This document shows positions 41,001 through 44,000 of a stretch of 64,000 nucleotides of DNA, one piece after another (the stretch's first letter is position 1; every line of letters starts with the position of its first letter). Location: the NCBI RefSeq assembly GCF_003018115.1, contig NZ_CP027457.1. The stretch is one strand, 5' to 3'. The position numbers were made by a program. Source of the DNA: Escherichia coli (GTDB lineage Bacteria > Pseudomonadota > Gammaproteobacteria > Enterobacterales > Enterobacteriaceae).

Positions 41001-44000
41001 TGGCGGAGAACCTGAAGCTCGGTTTTCTGGTGAAGCAACCGGAAGAGCCGTGGTTCCAGACCGAATGGAAGTTTGCCGATAAAGCCGGGAAGGATTTAGG
41101 GTTTGAGGTTATTAAGATTGCCGTGCCGGATGGCGAAAAAACATTGAACGCGATCGACAGCCTGGCTGCCAGTGGCGCAAAAGGTTTCGTTATTTGTACT
41201 CCGGACCCCAAACTCGGCTCTGCCATCGTCGCGAAAGCGCGTGGCTACGATATGAAAGTCATTGCCGTGGATGACCAGTTTGTTAACGCCAAAGGTAAGC
41301 CAATGGATACCGTTCCGCTGGTGATGATGGCGGCGACTAAAATTGGCGAACGTCAGGGCCAGGAACTGTATAAAGAGATGCAGAAACGGGGTTGGGATGT
41401 CAAAGAAAGCGCGGTGATGGCGATTACCGCCAACGAACTGGATACGGCTCGTCGCCGTACTACGGGGTCTATGGATGCGCTGAAAGCTGCAGGATTCCCG
41501 GAAAAACAAATTTATCAGGTACCTACCAAATCTAACGACATCCCGGGGGCATTTGACGCTGCCAACTCAATGCTGGTTCAACATCCGGAAGTTAAACATT
41601 GGCTGATCGTCGGTATGAACGACAGCACCGTACTTGGCGGCGTACGTGCAACCGAAGGTCAGGGCTTTAAAGCAGCCGATATCATCGGTATTGGTATTAA
41701 CGGTGTGGATGCCGTAAGCGAACTGTCTAAAGCACAGGCAACCGGCTTCTACGGTTCCCTGCTGCCAAGCCCGGATGTTCATGGCTATAAATCCAGCGAA
41801 ATGCTTTACAACTGGGTAGCAAAAGACGTTGAACCGCCAAAATTTACCGAAGTTACCGACGTGGTACTGATCACGCGTGACAACTTTAAAGAAGAACTGG
41901 AGAAAAAAGGTTTAGGCGGTAAGTAATTTGCCGGAAAAATTCCCCTCTGCATGATGCAGAGGGGGTGTGAACGACCAGTGATTCACGGAGACGTTATGCA
42001 ACAGTCTACCCCGTATCTCTCATTTCGCGGCATCGGTAAAACGTTTCCCGGCGTTAAGGCGCTGACGGATATTAGTTTTGACTGCTATGCCGGTCAGGTT
42101 CATGCGTTGATGGGTGAAAATGGCGCAGGAAAATCAACTCTCTTAAAAATCCTCAGCGGCAACTATGCGCCAACCACGGGTTCTGTAGTGATTAATGGGC
42201 AGGAAATGTCCTTTTCCGACACGACCGCAGCACTTAACGCGGGTGTGGCGATTATTTACCAGGAACTGCATCTCGTGCCGGAAATGACCGTCGCGGAAAA
42301 CATCTATCTCGGCCAGCTGCCGCATAAAGGCGGCATTGTGAATCGCTCATTGCTGAATTATGAGGCGGGTTTACAACTTAAACATCTTGGTATGGATATT
42401 GACCCGGACACGCCGCTGAAATATCTCTCCATTGGTCAGTGGCAGATGGTTGAAATTGCCAAAGCCCTGGCGCGTAATGCCAAAATTATCGCCTTTGATG
42501 AGCCAACCAGCTCCCTCTCTGCCCGTGAAATCGACAATCTTTTCCGCGTTATTCGTGAACTGCGAAAAGAGGGGCGGGTGATCTTATACGTTTCTCACCG
42601 TATGGAAGAAATATTTGCCCTCAGCGATGCCATCACCGTCTTTAAAGATGGGCGTTATGTCAAAACCTTTACCGATATGCAGCAGGTTGACCACGACGCG
42701 CTGGTGCAGGCGATGGTCGGGCGCGACATTGGCGATATCTACGGCTGGCAACCGCGTAGTTATGGCGAGGAGCGCCTGCGTCTTGATGCTGTGAAAGCAC
42801 CAGGCGTGCGTACGCCAATAAATCTGGCGGTTCGCAGTGGTGAAATTGTTGGGCTGTTTGGTCTGGTAGGGGCGGGGCGTAGCGAATTAATGAAAGGCTT
42901 GTTTGGCGGGACGCAAATCACCGCCGGTCAGGTTTATATCGACCAACAGCCGATCGATATTCGTAAACCGAGCCACGCCATTGCCGCAGGCATGATGCTC
43001 TGCCCGGAAGATCGCAAAGCGGAAGGCATTATTCCTGTGCACTCCGTTCGCGACAATATCAACATCAGTGCCAGACGTAAACATGTGCTCGGCGGTTGTG
43101 TAATCAACAACGGTTGGGAAGAAAACAATGCCGATCACCACATTCGTTCGCTCAACATCAAAACGCCGGGCGCGGAGCAACTGATCATGAATCTCTCAGG
43201 CGGAAATCAGCAAAAAGCCATTCTGGGCCGCTGGTTATCGGAAGAGATGAAGGTCATTTTGCTGGATGAACCTACGCGCGGCATTGATGTTGGCGCTAAG
43301 CACGAAATATATAACGTAATTTATGCGCTGGCGGCGCAGGGCGTGGCGGTGCTGTTTGCCTCCAGCGACTTACCTGAAGTCCTCGGCGTTGCCGACCGGA
43401 TTGTGGTGATGCGGGAAGGTGAAATCGCCGGTGAATTGTTACACGAGCAGGCAGATGAGCGTCAGGCACTGAGCCTTGCGATGCCTAAAGTCAGCCAGGC
43501 TGTTGCCTGAGTAAGGAGAGTATGATGTCTTCTGTTTCTACATCGGGGTCTGGCGCACCTAAGTCGTCATTCAGCTTCGGGCGTATCTGGGATCAGTACG
43601 GCATGCTGGTGGTGTTTGCGGTGCTTTTTATCGCCTGTGCCATTTTTGTCCCGAACTTTGCCACCTTCATTAATATGAAAGGGTTGGGCCTGGCAATTTC
43701 CATGTCGGGGATGGTGGCGTGTGGCATGTTGTTCTGCCTTGCTTCCGGTGACTTTGACCTTTCTGTCGCCTCCGTAATTGCCTGTGCGGGTGTCACCACG
43801 GCGGTGGTTATCAACCTGACTGAAAGCCTGTGGATTGGCGTGGCAGCGGGGTTGCTGCTTGGCATTCTCTGTGGCCTGGTCAATGGCTTTGTTATCGCCA
43901 AACTGAAAATAAATGCTCTGATCACGACACTGGCAACGATGCAGATTGTTCGAGGTCTGGCGTACATCATTTCAGACGGTAAAGCGGTCGGTATCGAAGA

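Follow-up and report, generated by a model that had tools for sequence, protein, structure and literature searches.

A conserved stem-loop between araF and araG of Escherichia coli, maintained in the sense mRNA and probably protective of the araF message

We investigated a 23-nt stem-loop at 41942-41964, between araF and araG in the araFGH operon, in a 64,000-nt window of Escherichia coli DNA (NCBI RefSeq assembly GCF_003018115.1, contig NZ_CP027457.1; all positions are those of this whole window). Judged from sequence comparison, the hairpin most likely makes the araF message outlast or outnumber the araG/araH message, and we regard it as probably a 3′ protective hairpin between cistrons, of the kind known from malE-malF, that raises AraF over AraG and AraH and may weakly attenuate transcription as well. 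The structure, the selection on it, its assignment to the sense strand, the lack of a U-tract, and transcriptional read-through are directly supported by the results below. A sequence-only reading of the window had proposed an intra-operon element of the stabilizer type here, and this appears sound in that all of its sequence-testable predictions came out as expected: a hairpin in 81 of 81 spacers, compensatory changes, wobble pairs on the sense strand, scarcity of U-tracts, substitution by repetitive extragenic palindromic (REP) sequences or bacterial interspersed mosaic elements (BIMEs), and read-through into araG and araH.

Results

A stable hairpin in the araF-araG spacer

The hairpin has a perfect 10-bp stem with seven G-C pairs and a 3-nt loop; the coordinates, the two arm sequences, and the perfect GC-rich stem given by the sequence-only reading agree with the sequence. 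Its parts, and the run that precedes it, are as follows.

41942-41951, + strand: 5′ arm of the hairpin, CCCCTCTGCA (sequence, RNAfold)
41952-41954, + strand: loop, TGA (sequence)
41955-41964, + strand: 3′ arm of the hairpin, TGCAGAGGGG (sequence, RNAfold)
41935-41941, + strand: A5TT run directly 5′ of the stem (sequence), which the sequence-only reading had missed

The whole araF-araG spacer is 69 nt long and reads TTTGCCGGAAAAATT-CCCCTCTGCA-TGA-TGCAGAGGGG-GTGTGAACGACCAGTGATTCACGGAGACGTT, followed by the ATG of araG. The hairpin begins 15 nt past the araF stop codon (TAA, 41924-41926), which is just beyond the reach of the terminating ribosome, and ends 31 nt ahead of the araG ATG (41996). Next on the + strand comes GTGTGAACG, so the stem is followed by no T-run, as had been claimed.

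RNAfold of the spacer returned the hairpin in both the minimum free energy (MFE) structure and the centroid structure. The energy of the compact hairpin is -18.2 kcal/mol, and none of 300 dinucleotide shuffles of the spacer was as good (shuffle mean -9.7); of 69-nt segments drawn at random from the window, no more than 2.2% do as well, real terminators and REPs being in that set. Perfect short-loop hairpins of at least 10 bp number six in the 64-kb window, compared with 0.4 expected from shuffles, and the one between araF and araG is the most GC-rich of them.

Two other roles were considered for the hairpin and rejected. It does not sequester the araG start, as the main hairpin ends 22 nt ahead of the Shine-Dalgarno sequence (GGAG, 41987-41990); in the MFE structure only a weak second helix touches the araG start region, and it is reduced in the centroid structure. 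Ribonuclease (RNase) III needs roughly two helical turns of duplex, and the hairpin was rejected as its substrate because a 10-bp stem is far below that length.

Conservation, covariation, and variation within Escherichia

A strong hairpin occupies the araF-araG slot in all 81 spacers that we compared (median compact energy -18.9 kcal/mol, median onset 12 nt past the araF stop). One AraF scan of a collection of species-representative genomes supplied 80 Enterobacterales loci (Escherichia, Enterobacter, Citrobacter, Klebsiella, Leclercia, Buttiauxella, Pantoea, and other genera), whose stop-to-ATG spacers were joined by that of K-12. The hairpin beat all 30 shuffles of its own spacer in 54 of the 81, and in 64 it was beaten by at most one.

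Covariation was measured in 28 non-Escherichia members of the homologous hairpin family (an Enterobacter-type clade), aligned by MAFFT and not fitted to the structure. In a 9-bp helix the paired cells amount to 95.6%; shuffling the 3′ letters gives 86.8 ± 1.1% (0/500 as high), and pairing drops to 38-64% once partners are slid by one to three columns. Five of the nine pairs have two-sided changes (26 cells; 0/500 shuffles), the remaining four being invariant, and intermediates are visible, with CCCCTCAC/GTGAGGGG passing through CCCCTTAC/GTGAGGGG (U·G) to CCCCTTAC/GTAAGGGG (U-A). The basal CCC of the 5′ arm does not vary across 34 aligned species. When Escherichia was included, RNAalifold recovered the six pairs at the base of the stem, of which three change on both sides, and an anchored pair count gave 85% paired compared with at most 84% in 1000 permutations; the upper stem is blurred in this alignment because MAFFT sets the Escherichia 3′ arm one column off (GGGGG vs. 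GGGGC).

Escherichia spacers all keep the 9-bp core CCCCTCTGC/GCAGAGGGG, and their loop is free in both sequence and length (TTA, TGTGT, an insertion in strain E69). Of the 5416 E. coli genomes that have the locus (5426 searched), 4970 share an identical 35-mer around the hairpin, and the other 446 differ from it by one base. Both of the single-base variants inspected (n = 2) spare the pairing. One E. coli variant changes position 41966, just 3′ of the stem; the O157:H7 allele (Z1615) carries C41947T, by which the pair 41947-41959 goes from C-G to U·G and is still paired in the sense RNA. The alignments show a structure that is maintained by selection.

The strand of the selected structure

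Wobble pairs are informative as to the strand, because a G·U pair on one strand is an A·C mismatch on its complement. The 28-species helix has 10 G·U cells and a single A·C cell, and the sense fold is the more stable of the two in 56 loci, the antisense fold in 18. Together with the O157 allele, the G·U excess and the fold energies argue that the selected structure is that of the araFGH sense mRNA and belongs neither to an antisense RNA nor to a DNA feature.

Termination signals and transcription through the hairpin

The terminator scan did not call the hairpin on the + strand, where it lacks the U-tract within 0-2 nt that defines a Rho-independent terminator. It was called on the minus strand (10 pairs, seven G-C, tail AATTTTTCCG) because the A5TT run at 41935-41941 reads there as a T-run, AATTTTT after the hairpin, and so resembles an intrinsic terminator. 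A T-run of four or more directly after the compact hairpin occurs in none of the 81 spacers, and one of three or more is absent in 76, the exceptions being Atlantibacter and Mangrovibacter. Since the U-tract is absent in nearly all lineages, the element is not a canonical terminator.

Published expression data bear on what happens downstream. RNA sequencing (RNA-seq) of enterohemorrhagic E. coli on arabinose gave inductions of 152× for araH, 145× for araF, and 126× for araG (PMC11127945, Supplementary Data 1); given this equal induction, araG and araH are transcribed from the same inducible promoter as araF, and polymerase reads through the hairpin. In two O157:H7 microarray comparisons, araF was induced 10.5× and 6.0×, and araG not significantly and 2.2×, respectively (PMC8489885, Table 1), a difference that fits, weakly, with more araF message.

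Different hairpins in the same slot

Hairpin types were assigned by eye, regular-expression classing having mislabeled Klebsiella and some others as REP-like. About 50 spacers have the homologous C-rich/G-rich hairpin (GCCCCTC...GAGGGGC and relatives) within alignable flanks. REP/BIME-type palindromes occupy about 15 spacers, in the Citrobacter koseri, C. amalonaticus, and C. freundii groups and in Buttiauxella and Cedecea. A hairpin of an unrelated kind, GGGCG...CGCCC, is found in about 11 more, and the structures of the Pantoea group are different again. The insert at the C. koseri locus (L008) contains the exact REP 16-mer GTAGGCCGGATAAGGC, and an identical 16-mer lies in the window at 25064-25079. 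At the same locus the araG tblastn match is 64% identical, compared with 76-99% elsewhere, and AraF is 96% identical; the ATPase gene may be divergent or replaced, or the match may be fragmented.

Three observations concern the borders of the spacer. At the Klebsiella-type loci (L065, L072, L075, L079, and L081; Klebsiella, Raoultella, and relatives) AraF ends in ...KKGL*, three residues shorter than the ...KKGLGGK* of E. coli, so the spacer begins earlier; the hairpin is retained. At L060, L062, L067-L069, L076, and L080 (Pseudocitrobacter, Pantoea, and an Enterobacter species) the AraF match stops at residue 326 of 329, which suggests that these proteins, too, may have the shorter C-terminus. 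In the Enterobacter-clade loci L020, L022, L025, L028, L031, L034, and L042, an outer 8-bp helix, CUGUGAUU...AAUCACGG, brackets the hairpin (about 3494-3553 in each locus) and its 3′ half abuts the araG Shine-Dalgarno sequence; the E. coli counterpart is just a local mini-hairpin in GTGATTCAC. This outer helix could link araF termination to araG initiation and may add translational control of araG.

Gene layout and other features of the window

The position of the hairpin between araF and araG, as the sequence-only reading had it, is borne out by RefSeq annotation of identical DNA and by NCBIfam equivalogs for AraG and AraH. A 701-bp stretch spanning the site is 100% identical in several complete E. 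coli genomes, all of which annotate araF and araG on its two sides.

40937-41926, + strand: araF, periplasmic L-arabinose-binding protein, first gene of the operon (RefSeq on identical K-12 DNA)
41996-43510, + strand: araG, ATP-binding subunit (NCBIfam NF008442 equivalog, 938 bits, full length; RefSeq)
43525-44511, + strand: araH, permease subunit (NCBIfam NF008441 equivalog, 593 bits, full length; RefSeq)
41983-41998, + strand: araG translation-initiation block, TCACGGAGACGTTATG, whose columns are invariant or nearly so in both spacer alignments
44549-44576, + strand: terminator-like hairpin 3′ of araH (pattern scan only)

The open reading frame (ORF) listing gives a longer araF with a start at 40886, which is a mechanical call. 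It also gives an alternative araG start at 41951-41953, an ATG in the hairpin loop, which we rejected as an artifact, the annotated and conserved start being 41996. RefSeq has no annotated feature between araF and araG, and an Rfam scan of 40000-45000 returned no match near 41942-41964 even at E <= 10. The hairpin at 44549-44576 has 11 pairs (seven G-C), lies 38 nt past the araH stop, and has TCTTCGTT after it; we take it as the probable terminator of the operon, forming the 3′ end of the full-length araFGH transcript.

The other five perfect 10-bp short-loop hairpins found by the window scan are as follows.

183-208: perfect 10-bp short-loop hairpin
17138-17162: perfect 10-bp short-loop hairpin
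39004-39027: perfect 10-bp short-loop hairpin
39194-39219: perfect 10-bp short-loop hairpin with A6...T6, resembling a bidirectional terminator
49049-49074: perfect 10-bp short-loop hairpin, followed by T7

Discussion

A probable protective hairpin at the 3′ end of araF

The araF element is a stable stem-loop immediately 3′ of a gene within a polycistronic transcript. It has no U-tract on the sense strand, it is transcribed through according to published RNA-seq (PMC11127945), and its structure is kept in related species, with 81/81 spacers occupied and covariation in the stem. All sequence-level properties of the protective-hairpin class are therefore present, and for this reason we take protection of the araF message as the best explanation. 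REP/BIME elements are multi-copy and of the GCCGGATG...CATCCGGC consensus type, which the araF hairpin is not: a 111-bp spacer query hits E. coli genomes at a median of one site each, and the stem CCCCTCTGCA is without the REP consensus.

The hairpin in the sense araFGH mRNA would set the 3′ boundary of an araF-only message. RNA polymerase would start at the arabinose-inducible promoter upstream of araF and mostly pass the hairpin into araG and araH. Endonucleases would then cut the poorly protected araG/araH portion, and the 3′-to-5′ exonucleases polynucleotide phosphorylase (PNPase) as well as RNase II would degrade the RNA until they stall at the foot of the G-C-rich stem. The translatable araF mRNA left behind, with the hairpin at its 3′ end, would thereby outlive the rest of the transcript, and a single promoter would yield more periplasmic binding protein than membrane and ATPase subunits. 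Modest hairpin- or Rho-dependent attenuation at the same site may act as well, and would push in the same direction. We infer the block to exonucleases and the excess of AraF that would result from it.

This scheme follows a general model, drawn from malEFG and from a survey of the whole E. coli transcriptome, in which a downstream endonucleolytic cut is followed by PNPase/RNase II trimming to a hairpin without a U-tract, so that the upstream message survives (PMC5927463). In that survey, 26 of the 34 operon pairs whose 5′ gene is stabilized end at a stable hairpin without a U-tract, and in every decay-regulated ATP-binding cassette (ABC) transporter operon found the stabilized gene encodes the substrate-binding subunit (PMC5927463). 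REP/BIME palindromes are the class of element in which stabilization of an upstream message was first shown (PMC5927463), and we count their presence in the slot of Citrobacter, Buttiauxella, and Cedecea as functional substitution that favors a protective role.

Several points weigh against this interpretation. Covariation establishes a selected structure and not what the structure does. The equal fold-inductions (PMC11127945) are uninformative on the absolute araF:araG ratio, and the microarray difference between araF and araG could be a probe effect. The tables of Dar and Sorek (PMC5927463) have no araFGH entry, presumably since its expression requires arabinose. Among known exonuclease barriers, a 10-bp stem with a 3-nt loop would rank with the smaller ones. 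Finally, no conserved RNase E motif marks an initiating cut in the 81 spacers; the density of RN|WUU on both sides of the hairpin is what base composition predicts, which leaves the motif search uninformative.

Alternative explanations

As the main alternative, the hairpin might be a partial transcription attenuator, at which polymerase pauses and some transcripts end, whether the termination is intrinsic and weak for want of a U-tract or is assisted by Rho, NusA, or NusG. An araF-only RNA would then be a primary transcript rather than a product of decay, and fewer polymerases would reach araG and araH. We consider this unlikely as the whole account. Its output would be biased toward the upstream gene exactly as that of an exonuclease barrier, an intra-operon REP is known to be both a partly Rho-dependent terminator and a stabilizer (bioRxiv 10.64898/2026.03.23.713779), and a few lineages do add T-runs after the hairpin (Atlantibacter L032, GCCTTTTTGG; Mangrovibacter, CCCGTTTACC). 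On the other side, the sense U-tract is missing in E. coli as in most of the spacers compared, the inductions of araG and araH match that of araF, so that any termination must be partial, and such hairpins showed no detectable Rho-dependent termination in a genome-wide study (PMC5927463). A mixture of stabilizer and attenuator is possible, since the intra-operon REP does both (bioRxiv 10.64898/2026.03.23.713779).

Protection might also act on the other side of the site, as in papBA: RNase E would cut in AAAAAUU, and the araGH fragment, starting with the stem-loop, would be shielded from 5′-end-dependent attack. The A5TT run does contain a match to the RNase E motif RN|WUU (AAATT at 41937) 2 nt before the stem, and cleavage just upstream of a stable structure was found in 7 of 10 operons with a stabilized downstream gene (Dar and Sorek, PMC5927463). 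Such a motif upstream of the hairpin is present, however, in just 16 of the 81 spacers, at a density expected from composition. The cut would strip the hairpin from araF, to the advantage of the membrane and ATPase subunits, whereas all decay-regulated ABC transporter operons found show the reverse (PMC5927463), and the O157 microarray hint points the opposite way as well (PMC8489885). We regard 5′ protection of araGH as very improbable.

Equally little probability attaches to a hairpin with no RNA function, whether the palindrome is neutral, is what remains of a decayed REP-like element, or acts at the level of DNA, for instance as a protein site or a cruciform. Palindromes are common in enterobacterial spacers, and REPs insert at the very same site in related genera; yet compensatory changes, strand-specific wobbles, and universal occupancy of the slot are unexpected for neutral DNA, the spacer is single-copy and without the REP consensus, and a DNA palindrome or protein site would conserve sequence rather than pairing. 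Marginally less probable still is that the hairpin acts as an intrinsic terminator on antisense RNAs, keeping those initiated within araG out of araF: the minus strand does read AAUUUUUCC after the hairpin and is called as a terminator by the scan, but an A-run of four or more before the hairpin is limited to Escherichia and a few Citrobacter among the 81 spacers and is therefore outside the conserved element, whereas the hairpin is universal, the G·U wobbles are on the sense strand (10 vs. 1), the O157 allele is an A·C mismatch in antisense RNA, and promoter-like sites in the region are no commoner than in shuffles (3 vs. 4.4 expected, with no intergenic excess).

Selection on the slot, and significance

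Across Enterobacterales the slot has held modules of several kinds: a covarying hairpin that is unique, insertions of REP/BIME elements, hairpins of the GGGCG type, and others that resemble terminators and have T-runs. We suggest, tentatively and with more doubt than belief, that selection is on the slot and not on the sequence, so that any stable enough sense-strand palindrome would serve and unrelated modules may have refilled the site several times. If so, REPs would have been recruited as interchangeable functional replacements for a bespoke stabilizer.

The protective hairpin proposed here is ordinary and of a textbook kind. The 1987 papers of Horazdovsky and Hogg and of Scripture et al. 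are reported to describe a full-length araFGH transcript and a more abundant araF-specific one, and reportedly also noted dyad symmetry in the spacer. To our knowledge, the comparative and covariation evidence is absent from those papers. Full-text literature searches, whose reach did not extend to the 1987 operon papers, returned no description of an araF-araG hairpin; an apparent araF match in PMC9023263 is a primer named ara_F. The mechanism being a textbook one and an earlier description of the hairpin being likely, we rate the element as already known. The comparative pattern is a tidy and unsurprising addition: some genera have the unique hairpin that covaries, and elsewhere REPs or other palindromes have taken its place.

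The significance is accordingly modest. The locus offers a clean, well-conserved example of how a single promoter could supply an ABC-importer operon with binding protein in excess of membrane subunits, and the operon is in wide use for arabinose-induction work. The comparative pattern may serve as a teaching case or as a basis for designing intercistronic "stability valves"; it opens no new question.

Comparison with known systems

Rho-independent terminators share a G-C-rich, short-loop hairpin with the araF element, which differs from them in having no sense U-tract and in letting transcription continue; their full pattern appears on the minus strand only. The hairpins of Dar and Sorek (2018; PMC5927463) resemble it more closely, being stable, without a U-tract, just 3′ of the stabilized gene, and conserved in Enterobacteriaceae. 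Most of those are located within the coding sequence that follows, at a mean depth of 107 nt, whereas the araF hairpin lies in the spacer.

REP325 of the yjdMN operon (bioRxiv 10.64898/2026.03.23.713779) is an intra-operon palindrome that favors the upstream gene, the role proposed for the araF hairpin. It is a REP array with demonstrated partial Rho-dependent termination and stabilization. The hairpins of the Rhodobacter capsulatus puf operon form a larger and more complex set than that of araF, in a different organism and operon. The likeness to araF lies in the puf "mRNA decay terminator," an intercistronic stem-loop that halts 3′-5′ decay and sets the stoichiometry of co-transcribed genes (Chen, Beatty, Cohen, and Belasco 1988, cited in PMC5927463).

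The nearest parallel in layout is malE-malF in malEFG (Newbury, Smith, and Higgins, Cell 1987, via PMC5927463). There, as in araFGH, a binding-protein gene comes first in an ABC-importer operon and a stable palindrome without a U-tract precedes the genes for the membrane components, with the same proposed protection of the upstream message and the same proposed excess of binding protein. The two differ in that malE-malF has multi-copy REP repeats, whereas araF-araG has a unique, single-copy 23-nt stem-loop.

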